Source: Alphaproteobacteria bacterium (GTDB taxonomy: Bacteria > Pseudomonadota > Alphaproteobacteria > Rs-D84). Taken from it: DNA of 64,000 bases. Made by a program: the position numbers and the translations under genes. The notes under the pieces are model-generated. The model searched no databases. It was not told the DNA's origin and saw nothing but the letters and a program-made list of their open reading frames with translations. Within the stretch, counting starts at the first letter, position 1, and each line of letters starts with the position of its first letter. Location of the stretch: positions 6,421-70,420 of the forward strand of contig JAFWJF010000007.1 in assembly GCA_017511715.1 (NCBI GenBank), written 5' to 3'. This document shows, piece by piece, positions 2,698 through 61,317 of this stretch.

Positions 2698-3443
2698 TAT
2701 CTTAAAAAGAAAGTTATTGTCGAAACCACGCGAACACGTTTGTTGATTGCCTGACGTTCATTATCAGACCATGCATCAACTTGGTCGCGTGCAGAAATGC
2801 TAAAAGTACCCTGGTTCGCGGTTTTGATTTTGCCCAATGTAGTTCCAGCATCTTTTGCAAACTGTTCACCCGCGGCAGTTGCATTTTTTGTCGCTTCTTC
2901 TATCATTTTTATTTTTATATCGTTAAGCCCGTTAAAGACATAAATTGGACCGGCATAATCTTCGCTTACCGTCACACCTTGACGCACCAAATCGCCCATT
3001 TTACGCGAAACAGCATCAACCAAATTTACAGAATTCGAACGCACCATAACACCTGTTTCAACAACATATCTGTCGTTGCTGGCTTGGTCTTTTCTTTCTG
3101 CTTCGCTGTATCCGGCATATTTATCACGTACTGTGATACGCAGGTTCTGTAATTCGCTTTCTTCAAATCCATTATTAATCAAGAACTGACGGGTCTTTAC
3201 CAAATCAGAATCTACATCAGATTGAACCTTGGCTAAATCGCCCCCAACACGACTGAATTTAATGTTCCAAACCGCAGTATCAGCGACAACATCCATTTCT
3301 GCCAAGCCTTTGACAGTAACAGTTCGCGATGCCAATGATTTATAAACACCGTTACCAATAAAAAAACCACCCAGCGCAACACCAAACGCCATGATAACAA
3401 CCCAAACCGTTGGTAAATTTTTAAGTTTTTCTGATATTTTCAT
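2697..3443 (-). CDS. SIMPL/DUF541 family periplasmic protein (YggE-like)
   Basis: 248 aa, N-terminal signal/TM, sequence pattern typical of 26-kDa periplasmic immunogenic protein family. Confidence 0.65.
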
Positions 3444-21154: not shown

Positions 21155-21502
21155 CTATCCTGCTATTTTATCAACATTTGCCAACCAAGTTTGTAATATG
21201 TTTGGTTTTTTTACTTTCAGTTTATTTATTTTATCCATATTATCTTTTCGTTTTGTATCGTATGGTTGTGCCGTTTCATCACGCAAACGCTTTAATACGG
21301 CGTTTTCAGACAAACCGTTCCCACTGTTTCCTGACGCACCATATTTAGCACGTTGTGATGCTAATGCTTTTTTTATTAAATTTGTTTTATTGGCTTCATC
21401 TTGAGCCATTTGTGCCAATATTTTTTGGCGTTGATTTTCTGCTTCTTTTTTAGAGTCTTTATAATCTAAAACCTTGGTTACATCTGATACTAATTGTCCC
21501 AT
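21155..21502 (-). CDS. Hypothetical virion-associated protein (115 aa)
   Basis: ORF in structural module; Lys-rich, no motif. Confidence 0.3.
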   Translation of the reverse strand: MGQLVSDVTKVLDYKDSKKEAENQRQKILAQMAQDEANKTNLIKKALASQRAKYGASGNSGNGLSENAVLKRLRDETAQPYDTKRKDNMDKINKLKVKKPNILQTWLANVDKIAG

Positions 21503-47164: not shown

Positions 47165-47622
47165 TATTTACTTTCTTGTTTCTGAATTTCTGTTATCACG
47201 CGCATACTGATTTTTTCAGACAACTGATGTATCGTGTTCATAACCGCATTATTATATGACGCATTAGATGCAACCAGATAACGAACAAAAGTATAACTTT
47301 CTGCGGCAGATTCTTTGGACGTGGCAATTTCCTTGTCGCCCTGCTTTAGAACATACGTTGCATTTAATTTAACTTCTTGCCAAACCGCGTCGCCTGCGCG
47401 TTCAAACGCTTTATATTGAGTCACAGGTTCATCCAGTTTGACAGTCAATGTATATTTTGCATTTTGTTCGTGTATGCCACCAAATTGGGCATTTAATGAA
47501 TTACGCAATTCAATACCATTAATACCGCTTATCGGTGCGACATAAACATCTGTCTTGTCGCCAGAAAAGATTGGGCGAAAACTGCATGCCGATATCATCA
47601 AAAGTAAAAATAATTTTTTCAT
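47164..47622 (-). CDS. lptE: LPS-assembly lipoprotein LptE
   Basis: 152 aa lipoprotein (lipobox ISAC) immediately upstream of holA. Confidence 0.7.
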   Translation of the reverse strand: MKKLFLLLMISACSFRPIFSGDKTDVYVAPISGINGIELRNSLNAQFGGIHEQNAKYTLTVKLDEPVTQYKAFERAGDAVWQEVKLNATYVLKQGDKEIATSKESAAESYTFVRYLVASNASYNNAVMNTIHQLSEKISMRVITEIQKQESK

Positions 47623-47687
47623 GTCTTTTTCCTGTTGAAGTTTATATTAATATTAGCTACACTTTTCATAAATCGCAAGGGGGAATC

Positions 47688-48929
47688 TTGAATATTTTTC
47701 TAATTCTTTTATCCGTAATAATTATGGCGGGGTATTATATTATATCGTCCCCATCTCAGCGTATAATCGAACATGAAACAGAATATGCGATAAAAAGGGC
47801 AGATTTGCGTTCCATCGCAGAATGTGTGGTATCCGCCCAAAACGCCGCAATGTACGCCGAAGATTTCAATGATATATGTATAGAAAAATACGGAATTGTC
47901 AGCCAATATGTTTGCATGAACGAAAAATACAACATTGTTTCGTGTGATTCTGAAGATACCAAGGCCCCCACATACAGCTTTATTATAACGACTTCTTCTG
48001 CATTACCAGAAGAAGAATATAATAACATGCTGGAAATTTTGGAAAAACATTATCCGGACGCAGGGACATTTGGTGTCTTTATCAATCCTAATTTAATGTC
48101 GGCAGGTTCTGTGGCAAATCGCGCTATTCCATCAAAAATTATCGAAGCAGCAAAATTGCAAACAGGACAACTGATGTACCTTATGCAATATAAAATCCCA
48201 GAAAAAACGATAGAATATCCCTTGGTTGATGGTTCCAATATAAATTGTCCGGTTGGAACGATGAAGACTTTCAGATTTGGTCGTTGGCAGTGTATCGATT
48301 ATAACTATAAAACATCTTGCACTGGCGATACAATATGGGATCCTGATTTGATGGTTTGTGTCGCAGACGAAAGCCGTAAGCCACTATGTTCTAACAACCA
48401 AACCGCTGTTATGGTTGATGACATATGGGAATGCGTGGATCCTTTTTCTGACCAAGTTTGCCCGGAAAAGATGGTGGCGCGCCTTAATTATTCAACACTA
48501 ACTTGGGAATGCGTAGAAGATCCAAATGCAACCAAGACCGTAAAAAAATGCGATAACATCGCACTGGCACCCCAGATGCGTGGCGCAGTTGGTGCAACAC
48601 TGCGTGTTCGTTCTGTGTCGTGCACCGATTGCGAAACCGCGGTCATAGACCAGGAAACATGCGAAACACATTGTATTCCTGATACGAACAAATTAACAGA
48701 CCCACGGTGTTATGATGGCGACATTTCCGAATGCAGTGGTTCAACCCGCGGTTTGTATTTTGGTTTTTCGGCAAAATCACGTCCAGATTTAATACCTGCA
48801 CTGCAAAATACTTCCGTTATTTTGGACCGCGACCACAGCCAAAACAGAATGTTTAATTGCCTTGATTGTGGCGAAGGCGAAATAGACACATCAAAATCAA
48901 TTTCGCCCTATACAGCCATTTGTAAGTAA
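47688..48929 (+). CDS. Cysteine-rich secreted/membrane-anchored protein (413 aa)
   Basis: TTG start after RBS aaggggg, N-terminal signal-anchor, C-terminal half with many paired Cys (CxxGT...C motifs); the table ORF start at 47535 overlaps lptE and is unlikely. Confidence 0.45.
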   Translation: MNIFLILLSVIIMAGYYIISSPSQRIIEHETEYAIKRADLRSIAECVVSAQNAAMYAEDFNDICIEKYGIVSQYVCMNEKYNIVSCDSEDTKAPTYSFIITTSSALPEEEYNNMLEILEKHYPDAGTFGVFINPNLMSAGSVANRAIPSKIIEAAKLQTGQLMYLMQYKIPEKTIEYPLVDGSNINCPVGTMKTFRFGRWQCIDYNYKTSCTGDTIWDPDLMVCVADESRKPLCSNNQTAVMVDDIWECVDPFSDQVCPEKMVARLNYSTLTWECVEDPNATKTVKKCDNIALAPQMRGAVGATLRVRSVSCTDCETAVIDQETCETHCIPDTNKLTDPRCYDGDISECSGSTRGLYFGFSAKSRPDLIPALQNTSVILDRDHSQNRMFNCLDCGEGEIDTSKSISPYTAICK

Positions 48930-49034: not shown

Positions 49035-50726
49035 TTAGAACAATTTGAATTTATAATTTGTCCCGGCGCGGAATGCCACCTGGGTTTTATCACCAGATGC
49101 GATGCCGGCACCTGCATTGACAGACCATCTGTCAGACAAGCCCATAGCCGCACCGAACGCCATTGCTGATTGGCTGTTATAATAACCATAACCACCACCA
49201 ACAGAAACTTCGCCTTTCTTTACATTAGACACTGCAACAGAAGACAATGCGGTCGCTGCCGCAACACCACCAGACAAATTCTTTTCCAGTGTATTGACTT
49301 TCGCATCTGTATAAGAATTGGCTTTCTTTAATGTTAACGCATCTGCATCAGCGATGCTTGCATTTATTTGTTGTTGCAATTGTTGGTCGGCATTTGCGCG
49401 TGCGCTTGCTTCATCAGTAATTGCCTGTTCTAATTCTGTGTCTTTTGCTTCGCGTGCGCTTGCTTCATCAGTAATTGCCTGTTGCAATTCTGTGTCTTTT
49501 GCTTCACGTGCGCTTGCTTCATCAGTAATTGCCTGTTGCAATTCTGTGTCTTTTGCTTCGCGTGCGCTTGCTTCATCATTAAGCGCAGAACTATCTGCCT
49601 TTAATGCCAATGCCGCATCAACATCTGCAACATTTGCTTTGCCACTAATATCTTGGTGTTCTGTCAAGAATTTAGCATCAGCATCTGCTTTGCTATAGAC
49701 ATCGTCGACATTTGCTTTATCATCCAACGCTGTCTTGATAGTTCCAGAAGCGACAGAAGCTTCAATGGCGTCATTTGCATGCGTATCAATTGTTTCTTCG
49801 ATTGGTGCATTAAATATATCTTTTGCTGCATTCAACGCATCATCGTTTTCGCTGTATGCTTCTTTCGCCGCCTGTTGATTTGCCTGTGCTGTTTCCAACA
49901 AACCAGCAGCTGTTTCATAAGAATTCCAATAACCGTTCAATTCTTCGACTTTGTTGCTGTCGGTTGTAAAGGCCGCATCTGCAGTTGCAAAATTTGCCTG
50001 TTCTGTTGTCCACTGGTCAGCAGTAGTTGTTTTTGCGCTATCAACACTTGCAACATCGTTCGCGTATGCTGTTTTCATCGCATCAAACGCATCTGCCAAT
50101 GCCGAACCAGGTTCTGGTTCACCTGCTGGTGTGTTATTGCTGTGATACAACGCTGTTCCATCAGCAGACAAATGGTATGTATCATCACCATCCATTGTAA
50201 CACTGTACAATGTGCCATCAAAAGAATCAGCCGTTCCGTTTGTCACAACTATTTCTGCGCCGTTGGTATAATCAGAATTTAATGTGACGGTTTGTGTCAT
50301 ATCTTGTGCAGAAGTGCCCAATTCGACATCATCGCCTGCGCCGTTGGTATAAGTATAATTGCCACGTTCAACTGTTGCCCCGGAAACGATTTCTTGTGTT
50401 GTCGAAACCACACCAGATGCGGCTGTATCGCCAGTAAAATCACCTTGTTCTTTTGTGCCAGACGACAAATCTGCAGGATTTCCATCTTTATCTGTGTATG
50501 TAAAATCTTCCAATGTTGGGTCTGTTGTTTGATTCGCTACATCGCGTGTTGTGCCGTCTGATTTTTCATACGAATAAGTTTGTGCCGCGACAGCATCATT
50601 GACATTTACTGTATCGCCGTTTGAATTGGTATAATCACCAGCAAACGTAACATCTGTTGCTGCATTTGCTCCGGCGACAGTCGCCATAATAGCCACAACA
50701 GAAGTCAAAATTAAATTTTTCTTCAT
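49035..50726 (-). CDS. Trimeric autotransporter adhesin (YadA-like anchor) with tandem 20-aa stalk repeats
   Basis: Signal peptide MKKNLILTSVVAIMATVAGANA; 3.5 tandem repeats (TDEASAREAKDTELQQAI); C-terminal YadA-like membrane anchor ending FKLF. Confidence 0.7.
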   Translation of the reverse strand: MKKNLILTSVVAIMATVAGANAATDVTFAGDYTNSNGDTVNVNDAVAAQTYSYEKSDGTTRDVANQTTDPTLEDFTYTDKDGNPADLSSGTKEQGDFTGDTAASGVVSTTQEIVSGATVERGNYTYTNGAGDDVELGTSAQDMTQTVTLNSDYTNGAEIVVTNGTADSFDGTLYSVTMDGDDTYHLSADGTALYHSNNTPAGEPEPGSALADAFDAMKTAYANDVASVDSAKTTTADQWTTEQANFATADAAFTTDSNKVEELNGYWNSYETAAGLLETAQANQQAAKEAYSENDDALNAAKDIFNAPIEETIDTHANDAIEASVASGTIKTALDDKANVDDVYSKADADAKFLTEHQDISGKANVADVDAALALKADSSALNDEASAREAKDTELQQAITDEASAREAKDTELQQAITDEASAREAKDTELEQAITDEASARANADQQLQQQINASIADADALTLKKANSYTDAKVNTLEKNLSGGVAAATALSSVAVSNVKKGEVSVGGGYGYYNSQSAMAFGAAMGLSDRWSVNAGAGIASGDKTQVAFRAGTNYKFKLF

Positions 50727-50784
50727 TTTGTTTCCTTTTTTTATTTTTAATATTAAAAACCGAGATTGTATAACCTCGAAATAA

Positions 50785-50812
50785 ATGGTACAAAAACCAA
50801 GGTTTTTTAACC
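50785..50812. promoter_or_regulatory. hix-like recombination site (left): ggtacAAAAACC-AA-GGTTTTTTaacc
   Basis: Core AAAACCAAGGTTTTT identical to Salmonella hixL core (TTCTTGAAAACCAAGGTTTTTGATAA); coordinates approximate (+/-3). Confidence 0.6.
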
Positions 50813-50892
50813 GCCACTTCAACGACATCTAACAAAACGCGCTTTTTCACTGTTTTCTGGGAAAAAATTACTAAATAAAAATTTATAAAAAC

Positions 50893-50920
50893 TGGTTGAC
50901 TTTTAACCTTGGTTTTTTTT
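50893..50920. promoter_or_regulatory. hix-like recombination site (right, inverted): tgacTTTTAACC-TT-GGTTTTTTTTag
   Basis: Same half-sites with central TT instead of AA, i.e. inverted orientation. Together with the left site it brackets a ~110 bp segment between adhesin gene and invertase gene. Confidence 0.6.
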
Positions 50921-51011
50921 AGACCTCTTGACATATTGAAAAAAAGAACTAAATATCCTGATGTAAACAGGCTTTTGCCTGTTTTTTTATTTGATAAAAA
51001 AAGGAGAATTT

Positions 51012-51608
51012 ATGATTTACGGATATTGCCGTGTTTCTACTGCACATCAACACGAAGAAAACCAACATTTTGTCATAGAAAACTTCGCAAAAAACAACAA
51101 TATGACTATCGATGTTTGGATAGAAGAAAAAATTTCAAGCAATAAAAAATTACAAGACAGAAAACTGGGGACTCTGTTAAACAAACTTGAATCTGGCGAT
51201 ATTTTAATAACAACAGAAATCTCGCGTCTTGGGCGCAGCCTATTGGAAGTCATGGGAATTTTACAGAATTGTCTTGAAAAAAATTGCCAGATTTGGACAT
51301 TGAAAGAAAATTTTCGCCTGGGGGCAGATATTCAATCAAAAGTTTTAGCTTTTGCATTTGGCCTGTCTGCAGAATTATCAAAATCTTTATTGCAAGAACG
51401 CGTTCGCGAAAGTTTGGCACGACTGAAAGCCAGCGGAAAAAAACTTGGACGCCCAATCGGTGCAAAATCAAAAAAATTGAAGTTAAGTAAAAATAAAAAA
51501 AGAATAACCTTTTTGGTAAACAAAGGTTTAAGCAAAAACGAAATCGCGCGCATCATGCATGTTAACAAAAGTACTCTTTACAATTATTTGCGAAATAATT
51601 ATATGTAA
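51012..51608 (+). CDS. Serine recombinase, Hin/Gin/Pin-type DNA invertase
   Basis: Starts MIYGYCRVSTAHQ (catalytic Ser in YxRVST motif), ~198 aa, C-terminal HTH (LSKNEIARIMHVNKSTLYNYL), RBS aaggag. Confidence 0.85.
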   Translation: MIYGYCRVSTAHQHEENQHFVIENFAKNNNMTIDVWIEEKISSNKKLQDRKLGTLLNKLESGDILITTEISRLGRSLLEVMGILQNCLEKNCQIWTLKENFRLGADIQSKVLAFAFGLSAELSKSLLQERVRESLARLKASGKKLGRPIGAKSKKLKLSKNKKRITFLVNKGLSKNEIARIMHVNKSTLYNYLRNNYM

Positions 51609-51751
51609 TCACAATTATTAAATAATTTGTCGTGGCACGTGCGCGCACCTGTTCCAAGAATTCAAGAAACGCAGCATAACTGTCTATGGTAAAATTGAAA
51701 CAGATGCAGAAGAAAAAAGTTCTGAAAGATTATGTATCGGGTGGACACACA

Positions 51752-51822
51752 GTTTACAAACCAAAGAGATAATTGCATACCCTGCAATTCACGAGCTGAT
51801 TTTCTGTATGATTTGTTGTTGT
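51752..51822. repeat. ~70 bp direct repeat, copy 1
   Basis: ctgcaattcacgagctgattttctgtatgatttgttgttgtttgggaaagaaattaaggtgtttttgg; near-identical copy at ~53636-53706. Confidence 0.7.
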
Positions 51823-51881
51823 TTGGGAAAGAAATTAAGGTGTTTTTGGAAAATTTATAATTATATAAAACACAAACAGAA

Positions 51882-52217
51882 TTATTCGCGTTTAAAATAA
51901 AAACGACATCCGTCTAAAAAAATATAAATAGAATCTTTACTTGATACGTAAAACTTTTCTGTTAAATTGTCTTCAGTTTTTACAAAAAGTTCTTGAGCTT
52001 TCTCATCCAAATCATATTCTCCAACAGTAAAATTGCGAACATCTATTTTAATATAAGTGTTTGCATAAAAATGCCGCGCAGTGCTTTCACAATCTGTGGT
52101 TATATGCCCGACATATTCAAATTTATCAAAAGACCAGTTACCACATAAATCACACGATTGGCTGTATACAGAACTACAGCCAACCAAAAAAGCAAAAAAC
52201 ACGATAATTTTTTTCAT
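51882..52217 (-). CDS. Small lipoprotein (111 aa)
   Basis: Lipobox LVGC; Cys-containing. Confidence 0.45.
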   Translation of the reverse strand: MKKIIVFFAFLVGCSSVYSQSCDLCGNWSFDKFEYVGHITTDCESTARHFYANTYIKIDVRNFTVGEYDLDEKAQELFVKTEDNLTEKFYVSSKDSIYIFLDGCRFYFKRE

Positions 52218-52290
52218 ACATCACAGTATAAATATTATTATTGTAAAAATCAATATACTCAAATTGACTTTCGGTAAAAAATCACTTATC

Positions 52291-52728
52291 ATGTCAAGCA
52301 TGAGAAAAATTCTATTACCATTGTTATTTTGTTTTATATATTTACCTGTTTATTCAATGACCTATAGTAATGGCACAGATTATTTATCTGGAAAATGGTA
52401 CTTAAATAATGCAGATACATTTTTTGGTGGCGAAATGAGTATTTCTAATTGCTCTGATTCTGTTTGTAGGTTTAATATTCAATCATGGTACGACTCACAT
52501 ATATGTGATGTTGATGGAGAATTATCTATACAAAATGGTTTTGCAGAATATAAAACCACTAAATATGTGTATGACAATCAAACAGGTGCAGAAAATTATA
52601 TTCCTGTTGGAATAGCATTCAATGTATTGTCACAGAATAAACTGAATCTGCGTTATATTAACACAGATTCAGACAATGCTTTTTGTGGTATGAACGCAAC
52701 AGTTGAAGGTGTTTGGATAAAACAATAA
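52291..52728 (+). CDS. Small secreted protein (145 aa)
   Basis: Signal peptide MSSMRKILLPLLFCFIYLPVYS; four Cys. Confidence 0.4.
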   Translation: MSSMRKILLPLLFCFIYLPVYSMTYSNGTDYLSGKWYLNNADTFFGGEMSISNCSDSVCRFNIQSWYDSHICDVDGELSIQNGFAEYKTTKYVYDNQTGAENYIPVGIAFNVLSQNKLNLRYINTDSDNAFCGMNATVEGVWIKQ

Positions 52729-52729
52729 T

Positions 52730-53263
52730 TCAGTATGCATTGGTTCTTTTTGTCCATCCGTTTTTCGCGGTTTCCCAGTTTCGCGTATTTCGTAAATAGT
52801 CAATTCTTTCAGACTTGATTGTTGACATAAATTCTTCAATCTTTGTATCTGGAATCGAATTTATAGCTTTGATTGTTTCTTTGCCTATGACGCCATCAAC
52901 TTTTAAATTTGCATCAGAGAAAGAGTTTATTGCTCTCTGAACAACTTTTCCTGCGCCACCCATAACGTTCATATCAAATACCGCATTACGTATTCTATCA
53001 TTTTCTATTTGCGGTATTCTTGTATTATCCCAGTATTCACTCTTATATATCTCTTTTGCGTGGTATTCTTTTAAATCTTTTACATCCTGCGGAAAATTTT
53101 TATCTGGGTATTTCGCAGAATATTTATCCAAAGTACTTTGTTTTATCCCCATGTTGGTTGCTTCATCTTTTTTCTGGTTTTTGCCAGTTGTATATCCGCC
53201 TTCGCGTTCTTTCAAATTATTATATGCTTGATTGAATTTTTTAGTGTCGTCACTCATTTTCAT
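52730..53263 (-). CDS. GH108-type lysozyme-like protein with peptidoglycan-binding C-terminal region
   Basis: N-terminal EREGGYTTGKNQKKDEATNMGI matches the EGGY...D.GG.T..GI signature of glycoside hydrolase family 108. Confidence 0.6.
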   Translation of the reverse strand: MKMSDDTKKFNQAYNNLKEREGGYTTGKNQKKDEATNMGIKQSTLDKYSAKYPDKNFPQDVKDLKEYHAKEIYKSEYWDNTRIPQIENDRIRNAVFDMNVMGGAGKVVQRAINSFSDANLKVDGVIGKETIKAINSIPDTKIEEFMSTIKSERIDYLRNTRNWETAKNGWTKRTNAY

Positions 53264-53277
53264 ATCTTTTACCTCAT

Positions 53278-53502
53278 TTATATCTGTTTTATTTTCTGGC
53301 TTTTGACCTTTGTACGGTTTGCTTGAAATTGTTCATAGGTCATATCGTATTCTGGTTCGATATATTGACCAGTTGCGTCTTTTTGTAATTGTTCTGGGAA
53401 CAAAGTTCCCAGATATTCATTTGCTTTTGCAAATTCGGTGCTATTTTTATCCCAATAATTATTAGATTGTAATAAATTGCGTAAAAATTTTGGTGTTTGC
53501 AT
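53278..53502 (-). CDS. Small hypothetical protein upstream of GH108 gene (74 aa from internal Met)
   Basis: Table ORF 53278..53589; Met at 53502 preferred because the upstream part is hydrophobic low-complexity. Confidence 0.3.
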   Translation of the reverse strand: MQTPKFLRNLLQSNNYWDKNSTEFAKANEYLGTLFPEQLQKDATGQYIEPEYDMTYEQFQANRTKVKSQKIKQI

Positions 53503-53635
53503 TATAACTTCTTTGTTAAATAAAAAAAAGCCCACACGTGATGGGATAAAATAAGAAAAGACAGCGAATGCTGTCTTATTAAGTTGCAATTATTATATCA
53601 TAAATCGCATAAAAAAGCAATACCCAAAAATCCTG

Positions 53636-56213: not shown

Positions 56214-59200
56214 TTATTTCTTAAATTTCCAACCCTGGAAAGATGCACCAGTCTTGCTGACCAGGTTTGATTCTTGTGGGGTGTGAATATCGCCATCATA
56301 ATAGACCTGACGAACATTAGTCGCCAAGGCTTCCTGGGATGTCACACCATCCCATGTAATGTTAATTTGGTTAGGGCTTTCGCACGCATAATAAGTTCCA
56401 GTTGGATTTGTAAAACTGGTTGTTGTTGCGGTACAGTCTGCTGAAGTTCCCCAACCACCGCTGAATGTATAGCCTGTTTTTGTTAAACCGCTGACGCCAC
56501 CAAAATCACAAGAAACAGATTGAGAACATATTATACTTGCATTGCCGGTACCAGAAGTGCCCTGTATTGTACCACTTCCCCCGTTTTTGTTAAGAGTAAT
56601 TGTGGTTTTACAACTGCTTTGACCTGCGTGGTCTGCGGCTGTTGTTCCACTGTTTGTGTATCCGTTGGTTGTATTACATGTGCTTAATATAGATGTTTGA
56701 CCATAGTTTATATTATGTCGTGTCGTATATTTATTATCGGTTGTAATTGCAGTGCATTGGTCGTTGGTTCTGTGTACGGCAGTCCCCGCATCGCAGGCGG
56801 TCTGACAGTTGCTCTGTGCGGTTGTTCCGTTTGCCGCATCATAATCTCTTGGACAATCGTTAATTGTACTTGTTGAACCATAACTCACAGAATGTAGTGT
56901 CGTATATTTACCCTTGTATGTAGAGTTCTGTATTGTTTCACATGCCCGCGCATTCGCTGTTAATACCGCATAACCAGCACTGCACGTTATCTTACAATCT
57001 GATATATCATCATGATCTGTTGCTTCATCTACATCTATATCTATTTTGCCTATTGGTTTTACAGTGCCTTCGCCTATTGTAGAAGTGCTACCAATAGTAT
57101 ACCCCCTTGGGCACGCAGTACAACTGGTCGCGCCAGTGGTGGACGAATATGTCGAACCGTCGCACACTGTGCAAGATGCGGCACCCCCGGTGCTATAAGT
57201 TCCTGCTGCACATGCGGTTTGTGTCAAAGAATCTTCGGCACTGTAATAACCCGCATCTGTATTTGTACAAACCTTGCCGTTCATAAAATCGATACCGTAT
57301 CCACGAGCATAGGTAGGATTACTTGTCCAATTCCACTCGTCTGTGCTTGTGATAGTATCATATTTACCTGCCGCGCAAGCAGTCGGATGCCGAACTTCAC
57401 AAATACTATTTGCACCACCGTAGGCACCATCTGTAGTGTTATAATAGCAATACACTCTAAATGTTGCATCATTATCTGTATCAGAGAAATTCGCGGCACA
57501 CCCTGTAATTTTATTATGTATATCGTTGCTCCACCAACCACTGTAAGAGGTGACACGACTCGCTATATCGCCCGTTACCGCAGGACACACCGAACAACTT
57601 GCCGCACCGGCTGTTGAATAAGTTTTACGTCCAGTTGTGGAATCGCTGGTACATTGACCGCATGTATTACCGCTTAAGCAATCGCTACTGCTGGTTGGGG
57701 CTGCGACCTTTGCACCACCAGAAGCAAAATACCCAGCCGTAACATCGCCAGTTATACCTAAGTCCGTACCGTTATAAGTATATGTACCACCCGCGCAATA
57801 TTTACCAGCAGGACATGCCGTGCATTGTGCATTGCTTGCATTTAGATATTCACCTGCGACACATGTTGCAACAACTGTCGCACACCATGGTTTGCCTGCA
57901 TCAGATGCCCATGATGGGGTGACAGTATATGTTCCCGCAGGGCAAGATGAAGCCAAAGATGTATTTGCGAACATATCACTTACTACGCCTTCTCCGCCTG
58001 TGACAGTGGTAAGGAATGTTCCCGGAACATAAGTCGTACTTGTTTGACCATCGGTTATACTAGCCAGGTTTGTACATCCATAAAATGTTTCCAGAAAAAC
58101 ATAATCTCCAGAACCTGACATTCCAGAAAAAGAGTCCGCTGGTATCGATGTTAAGCTTGTACAACCATAAAATGTATCAATAAATGCCCCTTCTCCGGCG
58201 CTGGATATTCTATTAAACAATCCTGCGGGTATTGTCGTTAATCCCGATCCTCCAAATGTGTTGTCAAACATATAACTTGCCGCTGTGGTATAATTTGCGA
58301 ACAGTGTGTCCGGTACACTGGTCAGGTTTGTTGCATAGCCAAATGCGCTGGCAAACCTTGGTTGGGCACCATCTTGTGCATTGCCCGAAACATACGGGAA
58401 TATGGCGGACAAATTACCAGAAACTGACGCAATCTTTGCAGCATTTGGTGTTGAAAATTTGTAAAAATTTATTGCCGATTCCGAAGATGCAGAGTATCCA
58501 GTTGCTTCTCCGCCAAACAAGATTGTTTGAAACGCACTGCTGTTCCAAGTACAAGTATATGTCACCTCGGTCGTATTGGAACGGGTGATTGTAGTTCCGG
58601 AAACGCCGGTCCCGCTTAATGTTCCGCCATTTCCACAATCTACATAGAATGTTCCGATGGCAGTCATGCTGAACTGATAACTGTTTGTTGATGTTGTTGT
58701 TAGTGTGAATTTGGGCAATTCCCAGTTCGCAGTGTAAGATTTTGCACCGGTGGCACTTGCACCAATCGTCACGGTTGGTTGTGGCGTTGAACCATTAGAA
58801 CCAGTCCATCCTTTGAATATATATCCTGATTTTGTTGGTGTGCCACTAATGGTTGTACCCACCCCATAAACATATGTTGTTGGTGCGCCGGAATAGTTTG
58901 TCCCACCATTCAAATTATATGTAATCGTATTTCCCGGTGAACACCATGGTTTGCTTGCGTCTGTTGCCCACGATGGCGTTGTGGTAACCGTTCCAGATGG
59001 ACAAGTGCCAGCTAATTCCGCCATACTAAACATATATCTTGCCACATTTGTTCCGCCGGTGACACCGCTAAGGAATGATCCCGGAATATAAGTTGTACTG
59101 GTTCCGCCATCAGTTATGCTGGTCAAGTTGCTACCATAAAACGCAGATTCAAACATAGAATTTGCCGCACCAGATATCCCGGTAAACATGTTTAATGGTA

Positions 59201-61094
59201 TTGATGTTAAACTTGAACAACCTTCAAATACAAAAGCAAACAAATAATCTGCGGCACCTGTTATACCAGAAAACAATTCCGCAGGCACTGTTGTTAAGCC
59301 GGTATCTCTGAACGTCCCATAAAACATATATGTTGCAGGTGTAGTATAATCATCAAACAGGGTTGCCGGCACACTGGTTAAATATCTTGCCCATGCAAGT
59401 GTTTCATAAAATCTTGGTTGTGCGCCACTTTGTGCATTGCCTGTGATATACGGGAACATAGCAGACAAATTACCAGAAACCGATGCAATCTTTTCGGCAT
59501 TGGCTAGCTTGGCATCGTCAGAACTGCCTGCGTAAAAACTTATCGCCGGTGTTGATGTGTCTGAACTATATGTGGTTGTTGTGTTAGTGGCACTTCCACC
59601 AAATTTAATTGTTTGCACGGCACTGCTGTCCCACGAACATGTATATGTTGCTTCGGTTGTGTCGGCACGCGTAATAGTGCTTCCAGAAACGCCGGTTCCA
59701 TTTAACGTTCCGCCGTTTCCGCAATCTACATAGAATGTTCCCTTGGCAGACAGGTTGAATTGGAAACTGTCGGTTGACGATGTGGTTAATGTGAATTTCA
59801 GTTCTGCCCAATTTGCAGTAATGGTTTTTGCTCCGGTATCACTTGGTCCAATGGTTATACTGGATGACGGTATCGTGACACCATTACCCGTCCATCCCAA
59901 GAAAAAATGGTCATTTGGATGTGTTGGGGTACCACTAATGGTTGTACCTATACCTTCTGTATATGTAGTCGGAGCATTTGAATAATTTGTTCCGCCGTTC
60001 ATATTGTATGTAATAGCATAAGTAGGTGAACACCATGGTTTGCCAGCAGTGGCTGCCCACGATGGTGTTGTAGCATCTGTTCCAGATGGACAAGGCGATT
60101 CCAAACCCGTTCTTGTAAACATCTGGTATACCACATTTGTTCCGCCTTCTGTGACACCATTAAGGAACGTTCCGGGAACATAACTTGTGCTTGTTTGACC
60201 TTTGGTTATACCAGTCAAACTGGAACAGTTATAAAATGTTTGTTGAAACATATAATTTGCCGAACCAGATATGCCTGAAAACAGCCCCTTTGGTATTGAT
60301 TCCAAGCTCGTACAGCCATAAAATGTCTGCTGAAACATATAATCTGCCGCACCAGATATGCCTGAAAACAGCCCCTCTGGTATTGATTCCAAGCTTGTAC
60401 AGCCACGAAATGTCTGCTGAAACATATGAGTTGTTGCAACTGTATAACCGTAAAAAAGGTCATCTTGTATCGCTTCCAGATTTTCTGCACTATGAAATGT
60501 TTGATAAAATCGTGGTTGTGCGGTGGTTGTGTTACTGGCGCGTGGAAATAAGTCCGATAACTTACCGCTAACACCAGTAATCAATCTTGCGTTTGTGGCC
60601 TTTTCGGTAGTATCTGCGCCCGAATAGAAACGTATGGTTGGATTACCGTAGGTACCATAAGATGAAGTAGTATCAGACGCATTGCCACTAAACCTGACTG
60701 TTTGTGTGTCGTTTTGTGCCCAACTGTTCCATGAACACGTATATAATGTCGACGTGTTGATGGTTCGCGTAATTGTTTTGCCTGAAACCGTACTGCCAGA
60801 AACGCTGGGACCATCTAATGTTCCAGCGTTTCCGCAATCTACATAGAAAGTCCCCTTTGCGCTGATTTCGAAATCAAAAGTTGTTCTTGTGGTTGTATTG
60901 TTTTTAAGGTTCACTGTGAACTTTACCGGTTCACACACACTGCCACCGCCATTTACATCAATTTGATTGCTAGCACACGCCGCAAATGCAGAATTTGCAG
61001 TAAACACTACGAATATTGCAAATATTACGCTTTTTATAAAACTACAAAAAGGCTTTTGCAGTGTCACCCCTTCCCTTTCCTTTCCTTTTTCCAT
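56214..61094 (-). CDS. Giant modular surface protein (1626 aa): lectin-like repeats, 26-residue surface repeats, Listeria-Bacteroides (Flg_new-like) repeats, Cys-rich C-terminal region
   Basis: Signal peptide. Three copies of the ~120-aa module ...SAKGTFYVDCGNGGTL.G.GVSG.TITR. Tandem YMFQQTFYGCTSLESIP.GLFSGISG.A repeats. ITYNxNGGTNYS...GWTG modules. Dense Cys pairs in last 500 aa. Confidence 0.65.
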   Translation of the reverse strand: MEKGKEREGVTLQKPFCSFIKSVIFAIFVVFTANSAFAACASNQIDVNGGGSVCEPVKFTVNLKNNTTTRTTFDFEISAKGTFYVDCGNAGTLDGPSVSGSTVSGKTITRTINTSTLYTCSWNSWAQNDTQTVRFSGNASDTTSSYGTYGNPTIRFYSGADTTEKATNARLITGVSGKLSDLFPRASNTTTAQPRFYQTFHSAENLEAIQDDLFYGYTVATTHMFQQTFRGCTSLESIPEGLFSGISGAADYMFQQTFYGCTSLESIPKGLFSGISGSANYMFQQTFYNCSSLTGITKGQTSTSYVPGTFLNGVTEGGTNVVYQMFTRTGLESPCPSGTDATTPSWAATAGKPWCSPTYAITYNMNGGTNYSNAPTTYTEGIGTTISGTPTHPNDHFFLGWTGNGVTIPSSSITIGPSDTGAKTITANWAELKFTLTTSSTDSFQFNLSAKGTFYVDCGNGGTLNGTGVSGSTITRADTTEATYTCSWDSSAVQTIKFGGSATNTTTTYSSDTSTPAISFYAGSSDDAKLANAEKIASVSGNLSAMFPYITGNAQSGAQPRFYETLAWARYLTSVPATLFDDYTTPATYMFYGTFRDTGLTTVPAELFSGITGAADYLFAFVFEGCSSLTSIPLNMFTGISGAANSMFESAFYGSNLTSITDGGTSTTYIPGSFLSGVTGGTNVARYMFSMAELAGTCPSGTVTTTPSWATDASKPWCSPGNTITYNLNGGTNYSGAPTTYVYGVGTTISGTPTKSGYIFKGWTGSNGSTPQPTVTIGASATGAKSYTANWELPKFTLTTTSTNSYQFSMTAIGTFYVDCGNGGTLSGTGVSGTTITRSNTTEVTYTCTWNSSAFQTILFGGEATGYSASSESAINFYKFSTPNAAKIASVSGNLSAIFPYVSGNAQDGAQPRFASAFGYATNLTSVPDTLFANYTTAASYMFDNTFGGSGLTTIPAGLFNRISSAGEGAFIDTFYGCTSLTSIPADSFSGMSGSGDYVFLETFYGCTNLASITDGQTSTTYVPGTFLTTVTGGEGVVSDMFANTSLASSCPAGTYTVTPSWASDAGKPWCATVVATCVAGEYLNASNAQCTACPAGKYCAGGTYTYNGTDLGITGDVTAGYFASGGAKVAAPTSSSDCLSGNTCGQCTSDSTTGRKTYSTAGAASCSVCPAVTGDIASRVTSYSGWWSNDIHNKITGCAANFSDTDNDATFRVYCYYNTTDGAYGGANSICEVRHPTACAAGKYDTITSTDEWNWTSNPTYARGYGIDFMNGKVCTNTDAGYYSAEDSLTQTACAAGTYSTGGAASCTVCDGSTYSSTTGATSCTACPRGYTIGSTSTIGEGTVKPIGKIDIDVDEATDHDDISDCKITCSAGYAVLTANARACETIQNSTYKGKYTTLHSVSYGSTSTINDCPRDYDAANGTTAQSNCQTACDAGTAVHRTNDQCTAITTDNKYTTRHNINYGQTSILSTCNTTNGYTNSGTTAADHAGQSSCKTTITLNKNGGSGTIQGTSGTGNASIICSQSVSCDFGGVSGLTKTGYTFSGGWGTSADCTATTTSFTNPTGTYYACESPNQINITWDGVTSQEALATNVRQVYYDGDIHTPQESNLVSKTGASFQGWKFKK

Positions 61095-61317
61095 GACACA
61101 AAGACAACTGTTTTTCCCCAGTTTTCTTCGCCCTGCACGCACCGTCCATCGATTATTTTGACGCGTCGCACTATTTTGTTATCGCGATTGTAGCACAAAA
61201 ACTTTTCAACGGTCAAGTTATAACAGAGAATAAAAAAGCTGTATTTTAATAAAAAAAACTTGATTTTAAGTAAAATATTATCTACAATGCGCCAAGTGAA
61301 TAAAAAAGGCGATAAAA

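Follow-up and report, generated by a model that had tools for sequence, protein, structure and literature searches.

In the 64,000-nucleotide stretch of DNA analyzed here (hereafter the window; contig JAFWJF010000007.1, positions 6,421 to 70,420, from an Alphaproteobacteria bacterium of the order Rs-D84), an A/T-rich spacer of 285 bp (50727-51011) separates a gene for a YadA-type trimeric autotransporter adhesin on the minus strand (49035..50726) from a divergent gene for a serine recombinase, or DNA invertase, on the plus strand (51012..51608). We think it probable, at roughly 0.8, that this spacer carries a recombinase-driven invertible promoter (inverton) that phase-varies the adhesin. The adhesin gene, the predicted target of the switch, encodes 563 amino acids with a Sec signal peptide (MKKNLILTSVVAIMATVAGANA) and a YadA anchor (PF03895 YadA_anchor, 5.9e-10). 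The recombinase is a protein of 198 amino acids that resembles the Mpi invertases.

The switch is bracketed by two recombination sites of 26 bp, on the left at 50787..50812 (GGTACAAAAACCA followed by AGGTTTTTTAACC) and on the right at 50897..50922 (TGACTTTTAACCT followed by TGGTTTTTTTTAG), and the invertible segment between their central dinucleotides measures 108 bp (50801..50908). A repeat search finds in them a perfect inverted repeat of 13 nt (50792-50804, AAAAACCAAGGTT; 50905-50917, AACCTTGGTTTTT; 100% complementary, with 100 nt between the arms). The central dinucleotides, AA at 50799-50800 and TT at 50909-50910, stand in inverted orientation with their centers 110 bp apart, and the left site is by itself near-palindromic (50787-50798 against 50801-50812, 83% complementary). 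A preliminary description of this DNA had already reported the two sites and their oppositely oriented AA and TT centers, and had likened their cores (AAAACC-AA-GGTTTT and AACC-TT-GGTT) to that of Salmonella hixL. The sites and their inverted centers are confirmed, and their core, AAACC-NN-GGTTT, is of the hix/gix type and matches the gix sites of phage Mu (gixL, TTATCCAAAACCTCGGTTTACAGGAA; gixR, TTCCTGTAAACCGAGGTTTTGGATAA; from AF083977).

For comparison, 160 related loci were collected, together with 34 contigs whose encoded proteins are identical to selected homologs; the related loci come from rumen and gut assemblies labeled Alphaproteobacteria or Candidatus Enterousia. Among 57 related contigs, 51 carry the segment as it lies in the window, which thus shows the majority orientation, and in six the homologous segment is inverted (L173, L178, L187, L004, L005, and L012). 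One case belongs to the P0021 lineage, whose members share one identical recombinase, 91% identical to that of the window: nine of its contigs are window-like and one, L173, is inverted. Over 105 nt, the interiors of L173 and L169 are exact reverse complements of each other, while their left flanks agree at 863 of 867 positions, and flanks and inverted interior join within the 10-bp core, to which the crossover therefore maps. A second lineage, P0020, repeats the pattern, with L178 and L187 inverted relative to eight others. Here the L178 interior is the reverse complement of that of L181 with two mismatches, next to 330 nt of compared flank with 0 mismatches, and comparison of L178 and L187 with L181 and L182 shows both orientations to be present. 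The three remaining inverted contigs (L004, L005, and L012) are species-level representatives. Because assembly k-mers far exceed the length of the repeat, these inversions are unlikely to be assembly artefacts of a 10-13-bp repeat. As judged from the assemblies, then, the ~110-bp segment between the adhesin and invertase genes is one that inverts naturally in sister lineages, which supports the invertible segment of the preliminary description. Contig ends near the switch (L084/L165, L166, L085, L088, L090, L013, and L201) were also considered as signs of mixed orientation and were not used, because only L013 ends at a crossover point and the others end elsewhere.

Conservation of the sites points the same way. 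In ~24 orthologous loci a site pair lies at ~-220 and ~-110 from the recombinase ATG, and orthologs of at least 74% identity hold a core AAC(C/T)-NN-(A/G)GTT at both sites with a spacing of 106-133 bp, while the interior diverges. It is this comparative evidence, namely that the sites keep their positions across ~24 loci and that the segment is found in both orientations, on which we take the switch to be real. Once all segments are turned to one orientation, the half-site consensus sequences, each read towards the center, are ..AtGGTA.AAAAACC for the left outer,.GGCGGT.AAAAAACC for the left inner, TGGTTGAcTTTtAACC for the right inner and tGGT..aaaaaAAACC for the right outer half-site. Inversion of the window segment is predicted to give the junction sequences ACAAAAACCAAGGTTAAAAGTCAACCAG on the left and GGCGGTTAAAAAACCTTGGTTTTTTTTAGACC on the right. 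Eight orthologs (L009, L091, L012, L015, L016, L017, L022, and L023) have a palindromic TA center at both sites and not AA/TT, so that in them the crossover dinucleotide gives no polarity; L012 is nonetheless among the inverted loci.

Other sequences resembling the sites were set aside. Within the window the core AAACCWWGGTT occurs five times against an expectation of 0.30; the matches at 21469 and 58353 lie inside open reading frames without a partner and were treated as chance, and only one site pair is present in the 64 kb. The recombinase gene contains a third hix-like sequence (51058-51071, AAAACCAACATTTT, at +47), which was considered as an enhancer or extra site and rejected as a by-product of conserved ENQHF codons, because its synonymous positions vary freely in 26 orthologs (AAC/AAT 9:17, CAT/CAC 14:12). 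A direct copy of the left site at 81% (50755-50775, AAAAACCGAGATTGTATAACC) was likewise not counted as a recombination site, because it overlaps a hairpin in the adhesin leader and is not conserved as a site in the orthologs.

What would the inversion control? Across 21 loci no part of the segment is better conserved than the right inner half-site, whose end carries a -35 hexamer, TTGAC(T/A), preceded by an A/T-rich tract. In the window this mobile promoter half occupies 50860..50901 on the plus strand, with an A/T-rich tract resembling an upstream promoter (UP) element at 50860-50892 and the -35 TTGACT at 50896-50901, and it faces the recombinase; after inversion it faces the adhesin. On the adhesin side, outside the invertible segment, lies a putative fixed -10, TACCAT (50785..50790, minus strand). 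With the -35 end moved to the left site, 23 of 24 loci have a TAnnnT hexamer on the adhesin side at 16-18 bp (mostly 17) from this -35 (for example TACCAT, TATACT, TAATAT, or TATCAT); the earlier placement of the segment in the adhesin promoter region is supported. On the recombinase side, none of the 24 has at that distance a hexamer whose second base is A and whose sixth is T. Promoter prediction in both orientations had been suggested as a check. In L173, where the segment is naturally inverted, a consensus promoter scan picks out TTGACT-17-TACCAT (minus strand), which it picks out neither in L169 nor in the window. The preliminary description had also let the adhesin -35 overlap the left site, and this has to be corrected, since in the window the -35 is at the far right end of the segment and no promoter-like site is called at the left one.

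The element thus looks like a split promoter, in which a mobile -35 with its UP-like tract joins a fixed -10 across a 17-bp spacer formed by the crossover site. Conservation in the left outer half-site is highest at the TA...T of the -10 and not at the GG shared by the other half-sites, which argues that conservation there goes beyond recombinase binding alone, though the two functions overlap physically. The window itself is predicted to show the adhesin-OFF state, because its -35 is turned towards the recombinase, on whose flank no -10 is present; CGGTTA fills the adhesin -35 position. Of 22 orthologous loci, 17 have a divergent neighbor with a homologous anchor of the YadA type and an N-terminal passenger that varies, so that the switch and the adhesin are, by their gene neighborhoods, a conserved pair. 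Several of these neighboring adhesins have an extended autotransporter signal peptide (MIRQSKTTIKELS...).

In the mechanism that we propose, the Mpi-like invertase (51012-51608) would bind the sites at 50787-50812 and 50897-50922 as dimers, cut both strands at the central AA/TT, rotate and religate them, and so flip the 108-bp segment, as it evidently does in orthologous loci and would be expected to do in the strain of the window. The segment would bring with it only the upstream half of a sigma-70-type promoter, the UP-like tract and the -35 TTGACT, while the adhesin-side flank would supply the fixed -10 TACCAT (50785-50790, minus). In the inverted state the -35 would come to lie 17 bp from the -10 with the recombination site as spacer, and the adhesin would be transcribed; in the state of the window the -35 would point to the recombinase side, where it meets no -10, with CGGTTA left at the adhesin -35 position, and the adhesin would be OFF. 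The recombinase would be expressed from a fixed promoter of its own through a leader terminator hairpin, and switching would be kept rare.

Several points weigh against this interpretation. In the window's own strain (recombinase 99-100% identical) an inverted copy is found in 0 of 5 contigs (L001-L003, L164, and L167), and the 51:6 bias among related contigs could indicate that, in some unrecognized role, it is the majority orientation that functions. The bias is compatible with an adhesin that is mostly OFF; another cause is possible. The inverted repeat of 13 nt is by itself only modestly improbable, at a chance expectation of ~2%: when the 285-nt intergenic region was shuffled 5000 times with its dinucleotides preserved, 96 of the shuffles contained a perfect inverted repeat of 13 nt or more. 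The promoter boxes are predictions that match a consensus, and the -10 shares bases with the outer half-site, so that recombinase binding could account for some of its conservation. A loop of 110 bp is very short for a serine-recombinase synapse. Finally, at 260.9 bits the recombinase scores just below the cut-off of 272 for the Mpi family model (NF009949).

One alternative is that the switch in the window strain is a relic, an inherited layout whose segment has become locked, for example because the recombinase is expressed at too low a level or is inactive. L164 and L167, of a 99% identical strain, have AACCTTAGTT at the right site where the window has AACCTTGGTT, a G-to-A change which breaks the inverted repeat and might mean a weakened or locked switch in those strains. 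Together with the five of five contigs in one orientation, this speaks for a relic. The window sites, however, form a perfect 13-nt inverted repeat and the recombinase reading frame is intact with its catalytic motif, from which we would infer that inversion takes place in this strain too. Assemblies, moreover, report the majority orientation only, and lineages with proven inversion also have 8-9 of 10 contigs oriented in this way. The comparison with other assemblies that had been proposed earlier yields both orientations in the sister lineages and a single one in the window strain, and we regard a relic as unlikely, although it is the strongest of the alternatives.

Somewhat less probable still is that the segment does invert with its main output on the recombinase side, where the UP-like tract and -35 would strengthen or newly start transcription to the right, into the recombinase gene or a short leader RNA, adhesin control being indirect or nil. 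This would suit the 51:6 predominance of the window-like orientation, in which the mobile -35 lies 27 bp upstream of a putative recombinase -35. The latter belongs to a candidate fixed promoter read from the sequence at 50928..50956 (plus strand; -35 TTGACA at 50928-50933 and a weak -10 AAATAT at 50951-50956), which lies outside the invertible segment. The consensus scan makes no call at 50928-50956 in the window itself and calls the homologous position in L169 and L173 as TTGAAA-18-TATCAT, with 10 of 12 matches. That the identical rightward promoter is called in these two oppositely oriented loci implies that it is independent of orientation, and in none of the 24 loci does the right flank offer a suitable -10 hexamer at a distance of 16-18 bp from the mobile -35. 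A terminator-like hairpin would further block the leader (50965..50991, plus strand; 8 pairs and a T7 run), between the putative promoter and the ribosome-binding site AAGGAG (51001-51006, plus strand). The hairpin proper (50965-50984) folds at -11.4 kcal/mol (z = -4.2), its counterpart in L169 at -10.7 kcal/mol (z = -4.1), and it is kept in the orthologs; it is predicted to hold recombinase expression low. Where the preliminary description had offered a switch for the adhesin and/or the invertase, the split promoter favors the adhesin, and nothing points to control of the invertase, on whose side there is no conserved -10.

The leader of the adhesin contains a similar element, a stem-loop followed by a U-run (50760..50779, minus strand), which is a terminator-like match with a fold of -7.0 kcal/mol (z = -2.9) and sits at or just past the predicted transcription start (~50778); orthologs hold a hairpin and T-run at the same position. 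It could be a leader attenuator or a 5' stabilizer. Both leader stem-loops keep their position in the orthologs and may serve in either of these ways, and both would be expected to damp transcription out of the switch.

To which family does the enzyme belong? That it is a small serine recombinase, as first described, is confirmed by a match to PF00239 (Resolvase, 1.4e-28) over residues 2-144. Its RVST-type catalytic domain has the catalytic serine, Ser9, in YGYCRVST (MIYGYCRVST aligns with MLIGYVRVST of Gin), and a GR(P) arm precedes a C-terminal helix-turn-helix (HTH) that matches HTH_7 weakly (21.7 bits, just below the cut-off of 23.8). Full-length alignments to Gin and to the Tn3 and gamma-delta resolvases take in LGRP (the GRP arm motif) and the helix-turn-helix; they are weak (phmmer, E = 1.8e-9 to 2.8e-7), and Gin, at E = 1.8e-9 and 28% identity, is about as similar as the resolvases. 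Among curated families NF009949 (Mpi family master DNA invertase) fits best, at 7.2e-78; on this model the orthologs score 255-265 bits, and the paralogs L024, L159, L074, and L160 from the same bacterial group pass the cut-off with 273.9-304.7. The trait typical of Mpi, inversion of short promoter-bearing segments with flanking inverted repeats, is seen in the orthologs through their natural inversions. On these comparisons the recombinase is a divergent, near-threshold branch of the Mpi family with hix/gix-like site cores, and not Hin/Gin by membership. The identical protein (100%) is annotated from an uncultured Alphaproteobacteria metagenome-assembled genome, and there are hundreds of close homologs.

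The preliminary description had called the enzyme Hin/Gin-type, and a Fis- and enhancer-dependent system of the Hin/Gin family deserves to be weighed, because the 12-bp site core AAACC-NN-GGTTT is identical to that of Mu gix, the 2-bp centers are non-palindromic and in inverted orientation, which sets polarity in Hin, Gin, Cin, and Pin as well, and the recombinase gene adjoins the segment from outside, as gin does. Serine-recombinase chemistry is also common to both. Members of the Hin/Gin/Cin/Pin group are, however, ~60% or more identical to one another, far from the 28% identity to Gin found here, and the best family model is Mpi. The segment measures 110 bp and not the ~1-4 kb of the Salmonella H-segment and the Mu G-segment, the outer 5 bp of the half-sites differ, many orthologs (eight) have the palindromic TA center, and the output would be the assembly of a promoter and not a gene or exon swap. 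Nothing that points to a Fis-type enhancer was found, and the hix-like sequence at +47 shows no constraint at the DNA level and is explained by the ENQHF codons. Fis is not known in Alphaproteobacteria, which would also count against such a system. We therefore hold a Hin/Gin system to be improbable. That the sites are mere A/T-rich palindromic operators or chance repeats without any recombination, for which the ~2% of spacer shuffles with a perfect inverted repeat of at least 13 nt might speak, is hardly credible given the exact reverse-complement interior between near-identical flanks in L173 and L169, the second lineage with two mismatches (L178/L181) and sites that hold their position across ~24 loci while the interior diverges.

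Among characterized systems, one of the closest to the recombinase-driven switch proposed here is the master DNA invertase Mpi (Ssr2) of Bacteroides fragilis. Both involve small serine recombinases of the same NCBIfam model (NF009949) that flip short promoter-bearing segments with short inverted repeats, and both concern phase-varying surface structures of gut bacteria. The window segment is about half the size of Bacteroides invertible promoters. The Mpi repeat consensus is said to have been given by Coyne and colleagues in 2003 as ARACGTWCGT, which some paralog sites (AAACGTTCAT and AAACGTTCCT) resemble. Mpi and the invertible polysaccharide promoters have been described in B. fragilis (PMC10403206). 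The differences are that Mpi acts on many distant targets, whereas within the 64 kb of the window the enzyme has one site pair, next to its gene, that the window protein falls below the cut-off of 272 and its site core is AAACC-WW-GGTTT, that the host is alphaproteobacterial and the target a protein adhesin, and that the mobile part of the promoter seems to be its -35 half alone.

Short invertible promoters beside an adhesin or surface gene, giving ON/OFF phase variation, are also exemplified by fimS of Escherichia coli, by mpl of Mycoplasma penetrans and by gut invertons from surveys of the PhaseFinder type. In fimS and in M. penetrans the enzymes are tyrosine recombinases (FimB/FimE and the M. 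penetrans enzymes) and the whole promoter lies inside the element, unlike the present case, in which a serine recombinase would act at a crossover site within the promoter spacer. In M. penetrans each mpl gene is switched by its own invertible promoter (PMC2268961), and inverton surveys (PMC11602134, PMC11892184) include an Akkermansia inverton of ~158 bp near genes with autotransporter domains (PMC11892184).

Invertible promoters for surface structures are thus already well known, and what is new is this inverton in Candidatus Enterousia-like Alphaproteobacteria. Within the literature searched, no report was found of an invertible promoter in Rs-D84 or Enterousia or of one ahead of a trimeric autotransporter adhesin, and a search for split or hybrid promoters made by inversion gave only an unrelated IS1 case. 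Its very small size and the division of its promoter by the crossover site might make it a variant. With a confidence only a little above even, we suggest a minimal split-promoter inverton in which the UP/-35 half alone is mobile, the crossover site serves as the 17-bp spacer, the element of ~110 bp is near or below the usual looping limit and the bound invertase also occludes the promoter; it would be conserved across Rs-D84 / Candidatus Enterousia, an order of gut Alphaproteobacteria with reduced genomes, where several paralogous invertase-switch pairs per ~1-Mb genome may be the main means of adhesin variation.

Invertible promoters are a main source of surface variation in gut bacteria and are best known in Bacteroidales, enterobacteria and mycoplasmas. 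The order Rs-D84 is uncultured, without a cultured member, and has genomes of ~0.75-1 Mb (PMC12306168). A dedicated invertase for one adhesin in so small a genome suggests that attachment is central to the lifestyle of these bacteria and is under immune, phage or niche pressure. As a compact natural part, with an enzyme of 198 amino acids and a 110-bp segment between two sites of 26 bp, which may assemble a promoter across a recombination site, the system is of interest for the study of serine-recombinase synapsis on very short loops and for the design of small genetic switches. Inverton-calling metagenome tools could follow the adhesin ON/OFF states of these bacteria in animals.

Paralogous switches occur in related assemblies. 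L074 and L076, from two of them, show one in opposite orientations, with sites TAAATCACCATTTA 146 bp apart that lie ~-226 to -66 from the recombinase ATG (at 3001); the recombinase is 58% identical and passes the Mpi cut-off. Several ~1-Mb assemblies hold 2-3 paralogous Mpi-like recombinase genes (JAFUSU01, with L066, L067, and L073; DFFU01; CALXYB01; CACWQS01; JAFXVB01; and JAGBHO01). L066 and L067 are two contigs with the same beginning, located 94 bp ahead of the gene, and this points to a boundary of a repeat or a rearrangement. At the paralog loci L063, L142, and L024 a TTGAC/TTGAT hexamer directly abuts one site, the right-hand one (cores AAACGTTCAT, AAACGTTCCT, and AATGTTCGTT), and the split-promoter layout may be general in this paralog group.

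The window holds no second recombinase in its 64 kb, and its other features touch the switch less directly. The adhesin stalk contains a 54-nt in-frame tandem repeat (49397-49582; 3.4 copies, 96% matches, EASAREAKDTELQQAITD units), a possible second source of adhesin length variation. The region 3' of the recombinase (51609-53600) differs among 99% identical strains (L165 and L166): the window has a GH108 / PG_binding_3 lysozyme-like gene at 52730-53263, flanked by small open reading frames (ORFs) without a family match, and L166 has a Phage_lysozyme gene at the equivalent spot. A phage origin of the recombinase, an idea raised by the nearby GH108 lysozyme gene, was rejected, because the adhesin-switch-recombinase unit is kept despite varying right-hand neighbors; sister lineages have zapA and other non-phage genes to the right. 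No switch-like site pair is present upstream of two further ORFs, one of 464 amino acids, cysteine-rich and without a Pfam match, that adjoins the adhesin (47535-48929, plus strand), and one for a protein of 1642 amino acids (56214-61142, minus strand), which has BspA-type leucine-rich and Listeria-Bacteroides repeats and is probably another surface protein.

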